From an uncultured Pseudomonadota bacterium (GTDB lineage Bacteria; Oederibacteriota; Muellerivitia; Muellerivitales; Muellerivitaceae), in assembly GCA_963843375.1 (NCBI GenBank), contig CAWJKT010000008.1, positions 96,001 to 160,000 on the forward strand: DNA of 64,000 nt. The letters run 5' to 3'. A program made the position numbers and the translations under genes. This document shows positions 1-13,356 of this stretch, piece by piece; position 1 is the stretch's first letter, and each line of letters begins with the position of its first letter. The notes below the pieces were generated by a model that saw nothing but the letters and a program-made list of their open reading frames with translations, made no database searches and was not told the origin of the DNA.

Positions 1-358
1 ACTTCCTCTTTTGGAGTCGGTGGGTGAAGCTATTTTAAGTTATCTACGCCACCGCCGAAAAAGTCCGCTTCGGGAAGTTTTTCTTTTGAATCGGGCTCCG
101 TTCCGACCTCTTACATGGCGAACTGTTGAACACATGGTTCAAAGGTATCTGATCAAGGCCGGTGTCAAAATACCCAGAAGTGGTGCAAGCACTTTCCGCC
201 ATTCCTGGGCCATTCGAGCGTTGGCCCATGGCAATTCGATGAAAGCCATCGCGGATGTGCTAGGCCACAGACGCCTGGATAACACCTTTATCTATGCCAA
301 GGCCGATCTCAAAACCCTTCGACAGGTCGCTATGCCGTGGGTGGAGGTGGCCTCATGA
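1..358 (+). CDS. tyrosine recombinase RitA-like, 5'-truncated
   Basis: C-terminal motifs STFRHS and LGHRRLDNTFIY; stop overlaps the next start (ATGA 355-358). Confidence 0.85.
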   Translation, partial: LPLLESVGEAILSYLRHRRKSPLREVFLLNRAPFRPLTWRTVEHMVQRYLIKAGVKIPRSGASTFRHSWAIRALAHGNSMKAIADVLGHRRLDNTFIYAKADLKTLRQVAMPWVEVAS

Positions 359-1359
359 CAACCCACCTTTTTCAAAGTCCAGTGGCCTCCAAAATGTATT
401 CCTTTTTGGAAATACGCCGTGCTTTGGGACGCCAAGCGGACACGGACCAAAAAACACTTCGGTACATTGACCGTTTCCTGGCGAATGTCCTCCAACCAGG
501 GCAACCCATCACGCGGGAGATCATCCATCAATGGCTAAAAACTATTGAGCCGTTGAGTGTGGTTACCCGAATTAACCGGATCAGCACCTTCCGAAAGTTC
601 TGCCGTTATTTGAATCATTTTGATCAGCGGACACATTTGATTCCACGCGGTCTCACTCCTAAGCGGACCCGTCCGGTTCCTTACATCTTTACCGATGAAC
701 AAATACGAGCCGTACTGGCTGCCGCCAAACGACTCCGCACAAGAAGTTCATTTCTTCCTTTCCTGATTTCGACCTTGATTGGCTTGCTTTACAGTACAGG
801 GCTACGGATCAGTGAGGCGTTGAAATTGACTTTGGGGGATATTGATCTCAAGCGAAGGCTTCTTCTGATTCGTCAGACCAAGTTCCAGAAGTCTCGTTGG
901 GTTCCCATATCCGTATCCACTGCCAAATCCTTGCGTGATTTTCTTGAGCGGCGGCGAAAAAGTGGATTCTCAACGGTTGAGACGGCACCGGTTTTCATCA
1001 ATCCTTACAAGAACGCAAATGGAAGACCATATAAGTACGATAGATTTTGTGGCGTTTTCCTAAAAATCCTTCGGGAAGAGAAGATTCGTGGGCCCAAGGG
1101 AGACCGGGGACCAAGGGTTCACCACCTACGACATAGTTTTGCCGTTCACCGATTGGCCAAGTGGTATCGGGAAGGGGCGGTTATTTCAACCAAGTTGCCA
1201 CTGCTTTCAACTTACTTGGGTCATTCCAGCCTTGTCGGCACGGAGGTTTACTTACAGGCCACCACCGACCTGTTGGAGGAAGCCAACAGGCGCTTCCACG
1301 ACAACTGCGCCTTTCCAAATTCACAGCAAAAGCCTAAAGGAGGCGTCCATGCCCAATAA
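355..1359 (+). CDS. tyrosine recombinase RitB-like
   Basis: TGLRISE, HHLRHSF, LGHSSLVGTEVY; GGAGG RBS. Confidence 0.9.
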   Translation: MTTHLFQSPVASKMYSFLEIRRALGRQADTDQKTLRYIDRFLANVLQPGQPITREIIHQWLKTIEPLSVVTRINRISTFRKFCRYLNHFDQRTHLIPRGLTPKRTRPVPYIFTDEQIRAVLAAAKRLRTRSSFLPFLISTLIGLLYSTGLRISEALKLTLGDIDLKRRLLLIRQTKFQKSRWVPISVSTAKSLRDFLERRRKSGFSTVETAPVFINPYKNANGRPYKYDRFCGVFLKILREEKIRGPKGDRGPRVHHLRHSFAVHRLAKWYREGAVISTKLPLLSTYLGHSSLVGTEVYLQATTDLLEEANRRFHDNCAFPNSQQKPKGGVHAQ

Positions 1360-2359
1360 CCTAGCTTCTCCAGTCCGAAACTTCTTTGAGCATTACCTGA
1401 CCGGCGAAAAAGGTTTGAGTTCTCATACGATCCTGGCTTACCGCGACACCTTGAAACTACTTCTGAGGTTTGCGGCGGATCACCATCGAAAGTCATGCGT
1501 GGATCTGACGGTGGAGGATATTTCCGCCGAAACTGTCCGGCTATTCTTGGTGCACCTGGAAAAAATAAGGGGTAATGGAGTCCGAACCCGCAATACCCGG
1601 CTAGCGGCCATCCATTCTTTTTTCCGCTACTTGGCTTATTGGGAACCCCGGTTTCTCGTAGCTTCCCAGGAGGTATTAGGGATTCCTTTCAAACGACACG
1701 CCAGTCCCGTGATGGGATATTTGAACCAGGAGGAGATGGTCCATTTATTTAGTCATATTGATACTGGAACATCTCAAGGCAAACGCGACGAAGCCGTTCT
1801 GCGGTTGATTTACAATACAGGTGCACGGGCCCAGGAACTGGTGAGTTTGGACGTAAACCATATACGATTCAGCCGTCCTTATTTGGTTCACATCCTTGGA
1901 AAAGGAAGAAAAGAGCGGACATGTCCTCTCTGGTCCGAAACTGTGGATTCACTAAAAAATCACCTGGAAGAGCGCCATGTAAAGACTTCAGACCGCGCTC
2001 CTCTTTTCGTGAATGCCAAGGGACAGAGGCTTTCCCGTTTCGGTTTACGGCACCTTATTACCCGGCGGGTTGCCATCGCGGCCAAGACCTCGCCAACCCT
2101 TCTCACTCGGAAGATTGGGCCTCATACCTTCCGACACACAACAGCCATGCATTTGCTTCAATCCGGTGTCGATCTCAACATGATTCGATCATGGCTTGGG
2201 CATTCATCGATTGAAACCACCCATGGTTACGTTGAACTCGATTTGGAGATGAAACAGAAGACGCTTCAGTCATGCAAGAATCTCCTCCCAAAAATGGAGA
2301 AGGGCGGCCCTTCATGGCAACAAGACCAGGGCATCCTGGACTGGTTGGCACGCCTCTAA
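1349..2359 (+). CDS. tyrosine recombinase RitC-like (XerD-like)
   Basis: TGARAQE, KGRKER, HTFRHT, LGHSSIETTHGY; AAGGAGG RBS before ATG 1349. Confidence 0.9.
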   Translation: MPNNLASPVRNFFEHYLTGEKGLSSHTILAYRDTLKLLLRFAADHHRKSCVDLTVEDISAETVRLFLVHLEKIRGNGVRTRNTRLAAIHSFFRYLAYWEPRFLVASQEVLGIPFKRHASPVMGYLNQEEMVHLFSHIDTGTSQGKRDEAVLRLIYNTGARAQELVSLDVNHIRFSRPYLVHILGKGRKERTCPLWSETVDSLKNHLEERHVKTSDRAPLFVNAKGQRLSRFGLRHLITRRVAIAAKTSPTLLTRKIGPHTFRHTTAMHLLQSGVDLNMIRSWLGHSSIETTHGYVELDLEMKQKTLQSCKNLLPKMEKGGPSWQQDQGILDWLARL

Positions 2360-2453
2360 TTATGTGAAGTGCGGGAGGGTCTTCACCACAGGATTTTCCC
2401 GCATTTTATCATTCCAATCCGATCAACTTCACATAACTAACCACTTCACATAA
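2360..2453. repeat. RIT right-end recombinase-binding repeats
   Basis: TTATGTGAAGT at 2360-2370; inverted copies ACTTCACATAA at 2426-2436 and 2443-2453. Confidence 0.75.
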
Positions 2454-2782
2454 CAAGATCACCCGAACGGTCTTTGTGAGGGAAGCTTGGCCCAGGGGGA
2501 AAGCCTAGAAAAAGGGATTCTGTACCATCCCTTTTTCGTTCCCCCCATAAACGGCACTTTAAATCCAAAATCCACGCTACCAGGAAGGACTAACCACCAA
2601 GTCTTAACCAGCTTTACCAACCACCTGCCTTACCGCCCATACCAACCCACCTACCACCATTACCCACTACCACCCCCAACATTCCAACCTACCACTCCTT
2701 GACTCCTGCTCCTGTTTTTCCTTGCTGTGTCTCTAATCAGTTCATCTCATCTACACCTCAAGTCAATTTCTCAGATTCATAA

Positions 2783-2879
2783 GGTTTTCCAATGAGGAGA
2801 GGGCGAACCCCCCTATCGTTTCTAGCATCCTCACTTGATGCGTAGATAGGGGGGTTCGCCATCGGATCATTGGAAAACC
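2783..2879. repeat. long nested inverted repeat / hairpin
   Basis: Perfect 13-bp stem 2783-2795/2867-2879, perfect 16-bp stem 2802-2817/2845-2860, inner GCATC/GATGC. Confidence 0.85.
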
Positions 2880-3163
2880 GACCCATTCAAAGGGAAATTT
2901 TCATTTTTGGAGTTCCATGGCGCGGAACTTTCATTTCCATGGGACATCGACTTTCTCCGCTTCCCTATTAGCTTTTAGGACTTCACGAGTGTTTCTGGTG
3001 CCTCAAATTCCCTTTAAATTCAATCGGACATTTCTCAAGACACCATGGCAAGGCCCCGGAAGTGGGCATTGGTCTTCAGGGGTATAGGGCAACTTTACAA
3101 GAAGGGAAAAAAGCGGTACCTTTTCCGGCTTTGCCAAAATAAGGGAAGTCGAGGTAAAGGAAG

Positions 3164-3402
3164 ATGAGCCGTTCCAGAAGGCATACCCCAAAACGTGGGA
3201 TCACAACCGCCAATTCCGAGAAGTGGGACAAGCGATTAGCCAACCGCACCCTTCGCCACCACAACAAGATCCTGGTCAATAAGGCGGGGGGGAAGACGCC
3301 CTTCCCCTCAAAATGAACCAGGTCATGACCACTTGGCACATGAGCAAGGACGGGAAGATCCATTTCGACCCGAGGAAAGAACCCAAAAACATGAGAAAGT
3401 AA
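3164..3402 (+). pseudogene. small basic hypothetical protein (MSRSRRHTP...WHMSKDGK...RK), frameshifted in a G7 run; not in the ORF track
   Basis: Manual translation gives MSRSRRHTPKRGITTANSEKWDKRLANRTLR..., then after a shift GEDALPLKMNQVMTTWHMSKDGKIHFDPRKEPKNMRK*; resembles a small uncharacterised family recalled from memory. Confidence 0.55.
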
Positions 3403-3480
3403 CGTTTAGCGATGGGACAATGAATAAGCGACGGGGGACTTATTAACGCTTAAATTATTTAACAAAAAGAGAAAAGAGAA

Positions 3481-4701
3481 ATGATTACTCGTTACAAAAC
3501 CGCAATTATTGATTTATGCATTAAAATTCAAACTATCAATAACTCGCCCTGGAATTCCGGGAAACTTTGTTTTCTTGTCCAACAAACGATTTTAAAAAAA
3601 ATTGTTCATGTCGAGCTAAAGATTCAAAAACTAAAAAGCCGAATTAAAGAAGTAAATACACAGTTCAAAATCAATCGAGGAACTCCAAACGAAATAGAAA
3701 AAGCCTCAAAATTAAATATCGAATTAGAAAAATTAGATCGAAAGATCAAAGATTACAAACATTTGCTAATCGTATTTAGAAGTCTCGGCGATTCTCTGGC
3801 CTTTATTTACATAGATAAATACGACATAAAACAATTTATTTTCAAAGAAAGTGCAGGTTACATATCAGGGAAAGAGGGACTGAAGCTCGAATATGACATA
3901 TTAAAACTAGCCTTTAAAGCAGGCGGAATCGCGCTCCTAAACGATCTTACAAATTGTCTAAGGCATGGTGACATAACCCTAGTTCGGCCAGACTTACCAC
4001 CTGTAATCATCGAGGCTAAAACAGGCACAAGAGAATTTTCTAAAGGGGCAAAACAGATTGAAAAGACTAATAAGATTCTTGATTTTCTAAACAGCGGTGA
4101 AACGACCAGAGAAAATCATTTCGTGAGAAGAATGGAAATCAAAACCAAAGAAATAGATAACAGAGTTTTGCTAAACGCTTTAGTCCAAGAAGCTTTGACA
4201 ACAGGGGATGCATTTGCAACGGCTGAAGCCGGCTTGCATTATTATCTGGCGACAATCCCGAAAATCGAAAACGTCAAAAAAATTATGGCCAGTTTTAACA
4301 GCCAACCGATATCTGCTTTTTTGGATTCTAATCAAATGCCTTATATTGGCTATTACCCTTTATCGCTAATACTAAAAAATCCAAATGCATATTTTAGTTT
4401 TTGCCGAGAAGAACTACATATCGTGGTTTTCTTTGAGCCAGCAGTTATAAAACAAAAATTCGAATCTTTAGGATTTCGGATCGAATTTCATAACAGCGGA
4501 GATTACGAGTTCAGCTTGTTTGCGAAAGACGGAATGAATAAAGAATTTGGTCCATTAAATATCAGCAAATTCTTTTTCGGTCGAATGATTATTGAGTTCT
4601 TAAGTTTGGATTGGTTTTTGAACGAATTAGTTAACGTCTATCGCGGAACGCCTTTAGCGGATTGGCTAGCTCAAAAACCAGATCCCGGGCTCCAATCATA
4701 A
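3481..4701 (+). CDS. hypothetical protein with N-terminal coiled coil and probable PD-(D/E)xK nuclease motif
   Basis: 406-aa AT-rich ORF; RHGDITLV...IIEAKTG. Confidence 0.6.
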   Translation: MITRYKTAIIDLCIKIQTINNSPWNSGKLCFLVQQTILKKIVHVELKIQKLKSRIKEVNTQFKINRGTPNEIEKASKLNIELEKLDRKIKDYKHLLIVFRSLGDSLAFIYIDKYDIKQFIFKESAGYISGKEGLKLEYDILKLAFKAGGIALLNDLTNCLRHGDITLVRPDLPPVIIEAKTGTREFSKGAKQIEKTNKILDFLNSGETTRENHFVRRMEIKTKEIDNRVLLNALVQEALTTGDAFATAEAGLHYYLATIPKIENVKKIMASFNSQPISAFLDSNQMPYIGYYPLSLILKNPNAYFSFCREELHIVVFFEPAVIKQKFESLGFRIEFHNSGDYEFSLFAKDGMNKEFGPLNISKFFFGRMIIEFLSLDWFLNELVNVYRGTPLADWLAQKPDPGLQS

Positions 4702-4711
4702 TCTGAAATAA

Positions 4712-5080
4712 TTACAAAAGGTTTTTGAAATCCTTTTTCAAGAACGGTGAGACTTTCCCGCCTTGTATTACCTTATCTAATAATGCATCCGACATATCGG
4801 CATCCGGTGTGGCGACGCGCATTGAAATGGCTACCTCGATTTTTTGGACATCTGAAAGGATTGCTTCGCGGTAATTAACTACGGATTCTTTCCTAATGTA
4901 GGGATGTTCGCGAGGTAGCAGAACACAAGATTGGTCCCTACCCTCTTCATTTTCCGTAATATTCACCAACAAAACCTTACCTTCCTCATCGGGCTCAGTT
5001 ATTACAAAATACAAATGAGGAGGATTTAGTGGTGAACCAGGATTTCTTAGTTGGACTGTACTTTTGATTTGGATTGGCAT
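4712..5080 (-). CDS. PemK/MazF-like putative toxin
   Basis: PHLYFVI...VLLVNIT...L...EHPYIRKESVVNY pattern; directly downstream of the Panacea gene. Confidence 0.6.
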   Translation of the reverse strand: MPIQIKSTVQLRNPGSPLNPPHLYFVITEPDEEGKVLLVNITENEEGRDQSCVLLPREHPYIRKESVVNYREAILSDVQKIEVAISMRVATPDADMSDALLDKVIQGGKVSPFLKKDFKNLL

Positions 5081-5091
5081 TCAAGAGGCAC

Positions 5092-5637
5092 TTACGAGCC
5101 AAAAACTGCATGGGCAAAGTGGAAATCAGAAATCTCTTGCTCGATCTTCTTTATCTCTTTCGGTTCTTTTCCAATAAAACTTAATAGTTTTTCATTGGCA
5201 ATTGGTAACGAAGAGCCGCTTGGGTCTTCCCATTCCTTTATGTGGGTATGGCAATAGTCGATCATTTCTCCAAAAGTATACTTTTTGAATTTTTTATCAA
5301 TTTCATTTAGAAGTTTCATTTCCGCTTCGGAGAGTTCACCATCACCCGGATCTTGAACAAGAACGGTATTAAATCCATCTTTCTTAATTGAGCAAAGCCA
5401 ATACTTGTTTTCAACCTTGCCTCTTATCCAATCATAAACTTCACTCAATACTGGCCCATTAACCATGGACACATAGCTTCCACCGGTGATAGGCCGGTTC
5501 CACTTCTTTAGAGCTTCCCTGTCGGCAAGATACATAAGCTTAATCATTTTTGTGTAATTGATATGCTTGCCGTTACTCTTGATAAAGTAGGCAGCCACTT
5601 GTGTTGCTTTTAATGGGTTTAAGTGAAAAATAATCAT
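5092..5637 (-). CDS. Panacea (DUF4065/SocA-like) antitoxin
   Basis: KMIKLMYLADR, GPVLSEVY, YCH..IKEW motifs. Confidence 0.85.
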   Translation of the reverse strand: MIIFHLNPLKATQVAAYFIKSNGKHINYTKMIKLMYLADREALKKWNRPITGGSYVSMVNGPVLSEVYDWIRGKVENKYWLCSIKKDGFNTVLVQDPGDGELSEAEMKLLNEIDKKFKKYTFGEMIDYCHTHIKEWEDPSGSSLPIANEKLLSFIGKEPKEIKKIEQEISDFHFAHAVFGS

Positions 5638-5737
5638 GAGTTACTCCTGAAACTTAGTATATATCTCTAACGACAGATACGGAAATTTTCAATAGCATGA
5701 CCGAATTAAGGTTATTTTTGCTAAGAAAACCAAATAG

Positions 5738-6035
5738 TGGTGGGGCATCCTGGATTCGAACCAGGGACCAAGGCATTCAGGTTTGTGCCGCTTACGCGAC
5801 TCCCCGGACTATCTCTTCACCCAAATATAAGGGTGTGGGACGCTTAAACGCGGTGATTAAGGGGCCTTAACCCCTCCGCTAGTCTCTGCACCTTCCCCCG
5901 GTGTACCGAAGGCTTGGCTCAGGATTGCCCGTCACCGGGTTTCCCTGAATTCATCCCATTTCATTCCCTGGCTTTCACCAGGGATGCACAGCTTCCGCTA
6001 TGAGTGCCCTGCTCTAACCGCTGAGCTAATGCCCC
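5738..6035 (-). tRNA. ileX: tRNA-Ile2 (anticodon CAU), intron-containing; exons 6035-6000 and 5777-5738
   Basis: Spliced 76-mer GGGGCATTAGCTCAGCGGTTAGAGCAGGGCACTCAT|AATGCCTTGGTCCCTGGTTCGAATCCAGGATGCCCCACCA folds as a cloverleaf with encoded CCA; resembles E. coli ileX and lies downstream of rpoD as ileX does. Confidence 0.9.
5778..5999 (-). ncRNA. group I intron (IC3-type, Azoarcus-like), 222 nt, no internal ORF
   Basis: P1 CAU|AGC-GGAA-GCUGUG with U.G at the splice site; core AAUUCAGGGAAAC, GGCAAUCCUGAGCCAAG, GAAGGUGCAGAGACUA, GAAGAGAUAGUCC; ends CACAAACCUG (omega G). Confidence 0.92.
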
Positions 6036-6051
6036 AATTTTTAAGAGTGCC

Positions 6052-6081
6052 ATTCTAAGACAGAATGACCCTTTCCAACAA
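6052..6081 (-). promoter_or_regulatory. possible sigma70 promoter for the intact tRNA
   Basis: TAGAAT -10 at 6057-6052; TTGTTG or TTGGAA 18 or 15 bp upstream. Confidence 0.35.
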
Positions 6082-6460
6082 ACTATCAGCCAATGACATC
6101 CATAAGACATCGCCTTCTGAAAGTATTACCCCATAAAGATTTCTGGTGTCTTTCAGGGCAGCATTACTGCCATGGCTTTAAATTCAATCGCACTTTCGAG
6201 CCTTTTTAAACCATCAAGCACGGCACCACAACTGCCCTGCTTTAAGTGGAGTGCCCTGCTCTGCTTCGTGTCTTATTCGTGTCATTCGTAGTGCGCTTTT
6301 ACCGCCACTGACCGCCACTTACCATGCTTTACCATGCTTTCAAAAAAAGGCCCTTGCCCGTGACCTTCTTAAAAGCGTTACGGGCAAAGGCGTTTAAAAC
6401 GTGCTGGGGACAGTTAAATTTTTACTCACGGACTTCGGGACCCCGCCGAACCCTCCAAAA

Positions 6461-6500
6461 CATTATGAGTGCCCTGCTCTAACCGCTGAGCTAATGCCCC
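6461..6500 (-). pseudogene. 5' half of tRNA-Ile(CAU) with the intron-less junction (att-like scar)
   Basis: 6465-6500 is identical to exon 1 (6000-6035), continues CAT-AATG as in the spliced tRNA, then diverges with no T arm. Confidence 0.85.
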
Positions 6501-6520: not shown

Positions 6521-6552
6521 AAAAAAGAAGGGCGCGAACTTCGCGCCCTTCT
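6521..6552 (-). terminator. intrinsic terminator after rpoD
   Basis: 12-bp stem AGAAGGGCGCGA/TCGCGCCCTTCT with a U tract on the minus strand. Confidence 0.8.
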
Positions 6553-6579
6553 CATAGTTTTACTATAGCAGAATACGGA

Positions 6580-8379
6580 TTAGTCTAAATAACCTTTCAA
6601 TTTTCGGCTTCGGGACGGGTGCCGAAGTTTCCGAAGTGCTTTCGCCTCGATTTGCCTTACTCGTTCACGGGTGACCTTGAAGGTATTGCCGACTTCTTCC
6701 AAGGTATGCGGGTATCCATCGTTCAACCCGAAGCGCATGCGCAAAACTTCCGCTTCCCTTTCCTTCAAGGTGTGGAGCACTTTCGAAATCTGCTCTTGTA
6801 GGAGCACGAAGGCGGCCGCATTGGCGGGGGAAATCACATCCTTGTCCTCGATGAAGTCGCCCAAATGGCTGTCCTTTTCCTCGCCGATTGGCGTTTCTAA
6901 TGAAATCGGTTCCTGGGCGATTTTGAGTATAGCCCGTACTTTCTCAACCGGCATTTCCAGTTTTTCGGCGATCTCGTCCGCCATGGGCTCTCTTCCTAAT
7001 TCTTGGACCAGGTCACGGGAAACCTTGATGGACTTGTTAATGGTTTCGATCATATGCACCGGTATACGGATGGTCCGGGCTTGATCCGCGATAGCGCGGG
7101 TGATGGCCTGGCGGATCCACCAAGTGGCGTAAGTGGAGAACTTATAGCCCCGGCGGTACTCGAATTTCTCGACCGCCCGCATCAGGCCAATATTACCTTC
7201 CTGGATCAGGTCCAGGAAAGGCAGTCCGCGGTTGGTGTATTTTTTGGCGATGGAAATAACCAAACGCAAGTTGGCTTCCACCAATTCCATGCGAGCATAA
7301 TAGGCTTCCCTTTCGCCGACACGAATACTTCTCATAAGGATTTTTAAATGCTCCCTGCCCGTCATGGCTTCTTTTTCTAACTTCTTGATGTGACGCCGGG
7401 CTTCGTCCCAAAATCGGGTCACACGGATAAAATTCTCGCCTTTCACCGCGCTCTTTTTCTCCAGCGGTTTGAGGTCGGAGTGGGCGCCATGTTTCAAGAG
7501 GCTGGGCAGTTTGATATAGGCTTCGGGGGTTAACTTCATTTGTTTTTCCTGCATATGCATGACATGTTCTTGCTCTTCAATTGACTCCCCATACTCGCGC
7601 AGACCGCCAATTAGTCGCTCCTTGACCTTCTTTTGGAATTGGCAGTCCTTCACCAGCCAGATCAGATCGATTAATTTGGCGTCCAACTGCTCCGCCAACT
7701 GTTTGCGCTTATCTTGATGAAGGGATTTTAAGACCACTTTATGCTGTAGGCCTTTGATTTGGCGCTCCAAGGATTTGAGTTTGGTTTGGTTTTTTCGGAG
7801 TTTGGTATAAATCTGTTTTTCCGGGATGCTGGGCATCTCGGTATAAGGGTCCAGGTCAACCGTTTCTTGAAGGGTTTTTCTTTTTTTCAGGATATCGTTA
7901 AAAAGGTCGTGTAGTTGTTGGAACCCAAGGGAACTACCCAAGACCGCTTTTTGTTCCTTGAACTCGCCAGCTTCAATACGCTTGGCGATGGAAATCTCCT
8001 CCTCGCGGGTGAGCAGGGGGATGCGACCCATCTCATGCAGGTACATCTTAACCGGGTCCCCCATGCGGGTTTCAACTCCGGCGGTTTCGAAAGATTTCTC
8101 AAACTCTTCCTCTTCTTCATCCTCGTCCTTGACGATCGCCCCTGGCACCTCAGCCCCGGCCTCCTTGTCGTCGTCGGGAATGGTGACGGCCTTTTCTTCC
8201 TGTTCAACGATTTTGATGTCGTTTTCACCTAGCATCAAAAGAATATCGTCTATCTCCTCAGAGGAAACAACTTCATCTGGAAGGATGTCATTCACCTGTT
8301 TATAGGTAATGTAGCCTTTCTCTTTACCAACCTCGAGGATCTTACTGACGTGTTCTTTCGCCTTGGACGCCGGTTTCAT
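6580..8379 (-). CDS. rpoD: RNA polymerase sigma factor RpoD
   Basis: Region 1.1, [29 protein letters not shown], region 4 TRERVRQIE. Confidence 0.98.
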
Positions 8380-12695: not shown

Positions 12696-13356
12696 CTACA
12701 AGCTTTCTGCGCAACTCAGTTCTTTTGTAGTTTGTGTTTTTAATTTCTTTTTCATTCCCGAAGAGGGCCGGTCCATTCCCGGTTTCACCGAAATATAAGG
12801 ATTTCCTTTAAGGTAAAACCGAAGCGGAAGCGCCGAACCATTCGTAATTCCAATACGGGTAGTCACTCCTACCGCTTCTTCTCTTTTTGCTTTTTTAAGG
12901 TAAAGGGGCTTTTTCCACAAGGGTATTTTATTGTGACGTTCGATTAATTCCCAAGGCTTGGACCAATTTTCCAGGACCATTGGTAAGAGATATGTCTTTT
13001 GGACCGAACTTCCCGCGACGCCGGGACATGCGGTCCATCCCTCTCACTGGTTCCAGTGACCGGATCAAAACCGCCCCCGGGGTCCCTTCTTTTTCAGTTA
13101 CCACATTGAACATAAAGTGGTTCCCATAACAAAAATAGACATAGGAATAACCAGCGGGACCAAACATGACGGCATTACGAGGGGTTATTCCCCTAGCGGC
13201 GTGGCATCCTGGATCATTTTTAGGAAGGTAGGCCTCGACTTCTACGATACGGCCCGCAACAGGCCCGTCCGAAGTCTCATGAATGAGGATTTGGCCCAAA
13301 AGATCTTTGGCCACCTGGACAGTTGAACGGGAATAGAAGGATTTAGAAAGAATCAT
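12696..13356 (-). CDS. mpg: 3-methyladenine DNA glycosylase (MPG), frameshift near 12940
   Basis: GRIVEVEAY, YGNH, AVLIRSLEP, GPGKL; C-terminal TTRIGIT in a second frame. Confidence 0.9.

Follow-up and report, generated by a model that had tools for sequence, protein, structure and literature searches.

A split, probable tRNA-Ile2 gene and an intron-bearing copy beside rpoD

The window, the whole 64,000-bp stretch of DNA that was analysed, is G000:C8:96001-160000, G000 being the genome under study. On its minus strand a hairpin comes after rpoD, then the 5′ half of a tRNA gene and, at a spacing of 465 bp, a complete tRNA gene with a CAT anticodon (Table 1). The original prediction, made from the sequence of the window, held that the 5′ half of a tRNA-Ile gene occurs twice here, and each part of that description stood up. 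The 5′ half at 6465-6500 equals exon 1 at 6000-6035 in 36 of 36 letters (37 of 37 with the next base), a duplication not due to chance (E 1e-11 within the genome), and upstream the identity of the two exon-1 copies stops at tRNA position 1. The broken copy also reads across the spliced junction: against an intact intron-less gene of a relative, positions 1-46 match at 96%, exactly as far as position 40, followed by two changes and then TTGG.

Intron-blind tRNA calling found no tRNA in the window. ARAGORN with its intron option labels the intron-bearing CAT tRNA Met(cat); we read it as tRNA-Ile2 from its linkage to rpoD, the other CAT tRNAs and tilS. Two other CAT tRNAs on contig C1 look like initiator and elongator Met, tilS is present in the genome, and in E. 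coli ileX likewise follows rpoD. No second Ile2 gene was found in G000, a genome that is 80% complete, so one could be missing, and a predicted tRNA-Ile(TAT) on contig C14 was not tRNA-like on inspection and was set aside. By a crude count over long ORFs, ATA accounts for 4,943 of 43,759 Ile codons in G000 (~11%). Elsewhere in the window, at 12696-13356, a methylpurine-DNA glycosylase is represented by a full ORF and a second ORF that matches just its C-terminal part.

The exons of the complete gene equal those of the host in G000, and we refer to it as the replacement. A generic promoter scan called nothing upstream of it, the hexamer TAGAAT included; 9 of the 13 islands of this kind have a similar −10 hexamer between −21 and −24, where about 1 is expected, the pattern having been chosen after viewing. 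The replacement probably has its own promoter on the island, judging from this hexamer. Its intron scores 73 bits against Rfam RF00028 (gathering score 50), sits after the fifth loop base and combines U-1 with omega-G, which places it in class Ile2.5Ug; the Azoarcus intron is an example of this class, subgroup IC3. All 15 aligned introns agree in insertion site, omega-G and the wobble (U-G) of U-1 in P1. A hand-drawn group I structure leaves 99.2% of cells paired across the 15, keeps P1, P4 and P7 throughout and has 17 of 68 pairs changed on both sides, a level reached by 0 of 500 shuffles, although this count leans towards the drawn structure because the structure was drawn on G000. The intron is likely to self-splice.

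Table 1 Features of the locus, its island and related loci (window positions unless a contig or locus is named)
Feature	Position	Strand	Remarks
rpoD, primary sigma-70	6580..8379	-	Pfam Sigma70 r1.1/r1.2/r2/r3/r4; landmark on host side, upstream of native tRNA
Terminator-like hairpin	6525..6553	-	between rpoD and native tRNA 5′ half
attL: native tRNA-Ile2 5′ half, positions 1-40	6461..6500	-	sequence and empty-site joint
10-bp core common to attL and attR	6461-6470	-	10 letters fit both sides of empty-site joint
7-nt anticodon loop CTCATAA within attL	6463-6469	-	
Island, 17,592 bp	1..6460, and beyond window to G000:C8:84869	-	
Left arm of island (P′ side)	6036..6460	-	conserved among the family's tRNA-targeting islands
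TGACACG direct-repeat pair	6266..6287	-	paired repeats also inside integrase end
Extra copy of attB left half (AGAGCAGGGCACTC)	6249..6262	-	similar copies in 12/13 arms
−10 hexamer TAGAAT, candidate promoter of replacement tRNA	6052..6057	-	hexamer pattern across islands
Replacement tRNA-Ile2 exon 1	6000..6035	-	
Group I intron, 222 nt, without ORF	5778..5999	-	ARAGORN with intron option
Replacement tRNA-Ile2 exon 2, CCA encoded	5738..5777	-	
Cargo: Panacea/SocA-domain antitoxin	5092-5637	-	antitoxin and partner block 4712..5637
Cargo: 122-aa partner ORF after antitoxin	4712-5080	-	matches just PHROG families of unknown function
Cargo: 406-aa ORF	3481-4701		matches just PHROG families of unknown function
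Cargo: tyrosine recombinase triplet	1..2359	+	starts off-window
Cargo: RadC/JAB, C5 methylase, DrmA-like ORF, then IS21 istAB	off-window		
Site-specific tyrosine integrase, 386 aa	G000:C8:84965-86125	-	
attR with orphan intron-less 3′ half	G000:C8:84833-84878		3′ half proper 84833-84872
Three 5′-restoring sister islands	G000:C8:171778-180575; C11:49798-56450; C11:206549-225553		
CAT tRNA of G456 in tRNA cluster	L200:1805-2661		split by ~780-nt intron holding 182-aa ORF

The island between the two halves

Two models had been proposed for this arrangement: an element that restores the 5′ half and leaves a ~425-bp non-autonomous remnant, or an island that cut the native ileX at the anticodon loop and carries a full, intron-split replacement. 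A search for an orphan, intron-less 3′ half located it on the same contig, with the opening bases of the anticodon loop in front of it and, 87 bp before that, the stop codon of a tyrosine integrase. The 429 bp between the two copies are not a stand-alone remnant but the left arm of a 17.6-kb island. The attL and attR junctions have 10 bp in common in G000 and 7 bp, the anticodon loop, across relatives; the attL region gives no cloverleaf fold, and no tRNA is rebuilt at attL or attR. A scan of G000 with the 23-bp attB at up to 5 mismatches returned three matches, namely attL, attR and a site unrelated to them; the two splice junctions of the intron-bearing copy were not among these, showing at the level of sequence that this copy holds no full attB.

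An empty-site allele exists as well. Four public runs, all in the form of contigs, were compared across the whole island region, and 2 of the 4, from two studies, contain a joint that skips 17,592 bp and at which 10 letters fit on both sides; an allele without island or intron thus occurs in the same species. Run X6 has a 4,847-bp contig that agrees with the two flanks letter for letter, and just 9 of 30 bins of the island region are covered; runs X1, X2 and X5, from two studies, give depth in 30 of 30 bins, and X1 may be the sample of origin. No excised-circle (attP) joint is listed in the four runs, whose contigs drop rare forms.

With the far-end 3′ half, the integrase and the empty site in hand, the second model held. 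We are confident that an island with a tyrosine integrase entered the host's one tRNA-Ile2 gene, itself intron-less, at the anticodon loop and brought an intron-split replacement with it. It recombined within the 7-nt loop, leaving the 5′ half at rpoD (attL) and the 3′ half at attR. Transcribed from the island promoter and self-spliced, the replacement would probably be the sole AUA-reading tRNA during integration, and precise excision would probably restore the native gene.

The TGACACG pairs inside both island ends are probable arm-type integrase sites, as their sequence and placement suggest. Copies of the attB left half (AGAGCAGGGCAC, at most 1 mismatch) lie inside the arm of 12 of 13 islands, against 15 matches in the 4-Mb genome. 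They could serve as decoys or as core sites with a regulatory role, or be left over from tandem events. G046 and L161 have longer decayed 5′ halves. The cargo appears defence-like by its gene content. The 122-aa ORF may be the toxin partner of the Panacea antitoxin, and we take the recombinase triplet to be RIT-like. No virion family was found among the island ORFs scanned, several of which had no family, and no excisionase or transfer gene was identified among them.

Three sister islands in G000 restore the 5′ half of their tRNA (Arg-TCG, Ser-CGA and Ser-TGA), with the 5′ fragment at the left and the gene rebuilt after the integrase. Their integrases are 58-63% identical and the left arm is the same.

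Several other tRNA-linked arrangements were noted alongside. An Asp island on contig C6 has the opposite orientation and a 3′ fragment. Just beyond attR, at G000:C8:83655-84832, a 16-bp repeat of the tRNA 3′ end delimits a Fic-domain gene, after which the start of that gene occurs a second time, joined to a host gene; this segment looks like a second, small, older insertion. At G000:C4:32836-90548, seven copies of the 46-bp 3′ part of tRNA-Val(CAC) follow that gene within 58 kb and make up a long tandem array of islands. Fragments of the tRNA-Thr(TGT) 3′ end lie at G000:C9:32345, 89490 and 179056 and at C20:29560, each followed by the same island arm, and the full gene lies on another contig. 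Units of ~55-110 bp stand immediately upstream of the Ile2 tRNA, native or island-borne (L040:11161-11412, L061:686-800, L161, L166, L067, L059 and L066); they begin with or duplicate the first 7-20 tRNA bases, are tandem in G005 and are possibly a miniature element targeting the tRNA 5′ end.

Island loci, introns and probable decay across relatives

Among 31 family genomes, 15 have an intact intron-less gene and nine (G000, G001, G003, G004, G005, G008, G018, G020 and G046) have a split 5′ half with an intron-bearing copy. The others are G006, with attL at a contig end; G022 (93% complete), where attR and integrase are present and neither 5′ half nor replacement was found; G014, with the intron at the native site; and four in which no such tRNA gene was found. 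Unsplit genes in the family are thus intron-less in 15 of 16 cases, and just five of the nine split genomes yielded an orphan 3′ half together with an integrase. Metagenomes searched with attL alone, without regard to the intron, gave nine matches, of which one was unrelated, two lay at contig ends and all six scorable ones have an intron-bearing copy, two of them repeating genomes already counted. All 13 distinct scorable loci carry the intron, 353-7051 bp from attL. This count leaves out L158 (an unrelated intact tRNA), L164 and L165 (contig ends), L160 and L163 (flanks equal to those of G020 and G004), and G006 and G022 (replacement region not assembled or not found). An apparent intron-less replacement in G002 was rejected, its two matches being one gene at a contig overlap.

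In all 16 attL the match to the tRNA runs as far as position 38-40, and in all 6 attR it begins at position 32 or earlier, limits that narrow the crossover to the 7-nt anticodon loop. Six Ile2 integrases form one clade with support 100/100 in a tree of 13 rows. Replacement exons differ from the host halves by 0-1 base each across loci: three of 13 (G001, G008 and L161) have an exon 1 that departs from the native half, and in G003 exon 2 differs from the orphan 3′ half. In these four the replacement was therefore imported and is not a local duplicate.

Across the 13 loci introns are 83-96% and arms 45-94% identical. The closest intron pairs are the closest arm pairs and not host kin: G000 and G020, from different genera, are 96% identical in the intron, 91% in the arm and 79% in rpoD, compared with 86%, 61% and 84% for the same-genus pair G000 and G001. 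Over all pairs neither the Mantel comparison of intron with arm identity (rho 0.10, p 0.22, n 13) nor that of intron with rpoD was significant, and few branches of the intron tree were resolved. The 13 loci probably descend from one capture, and the uniform presence of the intron is then not independent support for its selection.

Across the phylum, just 12 of 99 genomes matched the intron-bearing gene. Viral contigs yielded 82 loci with the exon-1 motif, all of them intact tRNA genes with other acceptor stems, and no relatives of the integrase; phage records gave just two partial matches to the intron core, and plasmids gave none. Among 401 genomes of another order, chosen by way of a locus titled Burkholderiales, two gave matches at E 1e-14, a distance at which the DNA search is insensitive, and neither match is a split island. 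In one of them, G461, the intron-bearing Ile2 gene is native beside rpoD. The other, G456, has an intron-bearing tRNA in a tRNA cluster, as well as an intact copy beside rpoD; we take its 182-aa intron ORF to be HNH-like. G025, from the sister family within the order of G000, has a native intron-bearing Ile2 gene beside rpoD without split halves. A further predicted intron of 221 nt was seen in tRNA-Leu(TAA) of G461 (L199:5059-5364), ~25 kb from the native Ile2 intron.

G001 (99% complete) retains the 5′ half, the arm and the intron-bearing gene; searches for an orphan 3′ half and for an integrase of the Ile2 clade were negative, and the host backbone that lies beyond attR in G000 starts 73 bp after exon 2; the same backbone follows an intact gene in G009. 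We infer that G001 holds a collapsed island, as a deletion between the two 40-bp copies of exon 2 would leave. In G014 (63% complete) the intron-bearing gene stands behind the native neighbours without an arm. Its intron shares 96% identity with the one on the island of G004 and 75% with that of G025, and the intron tree places it as sister to G004 with weak support (87/82). Collapse between exon-1 copies would give such a native-site intron, and G014 may instead have been a donor.

Origin and role of the intron, and known systems

In lambda-type recombination, attP and attB in direct orientation on one circle resolve into two pieces. By this analogy, an intron-less replacement identical to the host gene would set a perfect attB beside attP, and the integrase would cut the excised circle; we give an even chance to the proposal that the intron is kept for this reason. 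By breaking attB, the intron would make host-identical exons on the island possible. It is equally a toss-up whether the island collapses by recombination across the 40-bp exon-2 or 36-bp exon-1 repeats and the intron thereby becomes fixed in the chromosome of the host, a step that would also remove the island's target attB. More tentatively, and with somewhat less conviction, we propose that the intron spreads by integrase and without a homing endonuclease: the replacement would be shielded, the ORF-less intron would be ferried between genera, and collapse would fix it in the chromosome (G001) and in the end at the native site (G014). If so, a native-site intron would make its host resistant to the island family. 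That would be direct evidence from bacteria that tRNA introns can act as armour against integrating elements, and it would give the group I introns of tRNA genes a general means of patchy spread. We also considered a role in resisting anticodon nucleases and dropped it, since splicing yields the host tRNA itself.

That the layout is an assembly artefact or strain chimera is vanishingly improbable. The 36-40-bp repeats do break assemblies at the Ile2 gene in G002 and G006, and no listed piece of the four runs spans the whole island; but twelve other loci share the layout with diverged arms, and three runs from two studies cover every bin of the island region. Because the layout recurs with diverged flanks in 8 of 30 other genomes and 4 further metagenome contigs, the duplicate is not an artefact. 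The first model of the original prediction, in which a 429-bp non-autonomous remnant restores the 5′ half of a native intron-bearing gene, would suit the three sister islands, which do restore a 5′ half with the same integrase family and arm, and G001 today resembles such a remnant. At Ile2 it is nevertheless wrong, or at best very improbable: there is an orphan 3′ half with an integrase at a distance of 17.6 kb, the sequence of the broken copy runs on through the spliced junction, and the same-species empty site, which is intron-less and skips the whole island, refutes it.

The main rival to the immunity step, and to that step alone, is neutral capture, which we place a little short of an even chance. 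An ancestral island would have captured an already intron-bearing tRNA-Ile2, permitting loss of the restoring segment of attP, and an intron that splices out and is rarely lost would have hitchhiked. This fits the native intron-bearing genes in the same order (G025) and elsewhere (G461), the classical standing of Ile2.5Ug (bioRxiv 2020.01.27.920355) and the likely single origin. It fits less well with exons equal to the host attB, since without its intron the island would, by the lambda-type analogy, carry its own target, or with the lack of an intron-less replacement in 13 loci despite the divergence of their introns and arms. The direction of spread alone is challenged by a different view, that the intron is ancestral at the native locus in the family, with G014-type genes as donors and intron-less genes arising by loss. 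The native intron of the sister-family genome G025 is in its favour, and the G014 contig ends 785 bp downstream in a genome that is 63% complete, so the history of G014 is not directly readable. We consider this view unlikely, given that the G014 intron is far closer to the island intron of G004 (if with weak tree support) than to that of G025, that 15 of 16 unsplit family genes are without intron and that G001 shows that collapse happens.

The preferred reading, an island with an intron-split and possibly shielded replacement, bears on the way in which group I introns without an ORF pass from one bacterial tRNA gene to another and on whether tRNA introns guard against integrating elements, and would extend tRNA-dependent integration from actinophages to non-phage islands. 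The locus also offers small natural reagents: one integrase, a 7-bp crossover, a same-species empty allele, an intron copy with identical exons and restoring sister integrases. Tools that seek a tRNA plus one fragment would mis-bound the split layout, and intron-blind tRNA calls miss it. A literature search, with most subscription journals outside its reach, returned no description of an intron-split replacement tRNA on an island.

Each component has precedents. By sequence, the island intron is a member of the classical Ile2.5Ug class, subgroup IC3 (Williams 2020, bioRxiv 10.1101/2020.01.27.920355), with what is probably the same tRNA and with the same fifth-loop-base position, U-1 P1 wobble, omega-G and compact, ORF-less form. 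It differs in sitting in a replacement gene on an island: the text of Williams 2020 is without discussion of genomic context, and the other Ile2 introns that we checked are native or in a tRNA cluster. Canonical tDNA-restoring islands, as the consulted part of the Islander paper presents them (PMC4383910), likewise have a tyrosine integrase, an anticodon-centred crossover and tRNA fragments at their ends, and 5′-fragment islands are known among them (159 of 3919, ~4%). In contrast to these, the attP of the Ile2 island lacks a restoring fragment, and each of the two halves is an orphan; by itself, the 465-bp pair of 5′ fragment and full gene falls under Islander's 2-kb length filter. The gain of an archaeal tRNA intron through an intron-bearing attP, with a proposed benefit to the integrated element, is described in the portion consulted of Sugahara et al. 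2012 (PMC3293823), which cites the idea of Randau and Soll (2008) that introns block integration and states that there is no direct evidence for a link between tRNA introns and protection from integration. In that case as in ours a mobile element brings a tRNA intron with a proposed gain to the element. There, going by the same portion, the intron is archaeal, at 24/25 inside a 5′-restoring attP and in one population; here a bacterial group I intron, predicted to self-splice, interrupts the crossover loop of a full, separate gene, and alleles of three kinds (empty, full and collapsed) occur across a family.

Closest in mechanism is the tRNA-dependent lysogeny of actinobacteriophages (Guerrero-Bustamante and Hatfull 2024; PMC10865867, consulted in part). 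The island shares with it a tyrosine integrase, an attB overlapping a host tRNA gene, a short core (~10 bp) and the fact that no tRNA is rebuilt at attL or attR. That system is a temperate phage, whereas ours is a 17.6-kb defence-type island in which no virion gene was found; the tRNA of phage Fionnbharth is described there as not closely related to that of its host, whereas the island exons equal the host's; and an intron splits the core in the island, the word 'intron' appearing in the accessible text of PMC10865867 just in a reference title. By analogy, the island would work like tRNA-dependent lysogeny, whose sequence features it displays, but as a non-phage element it would not be a strict member.
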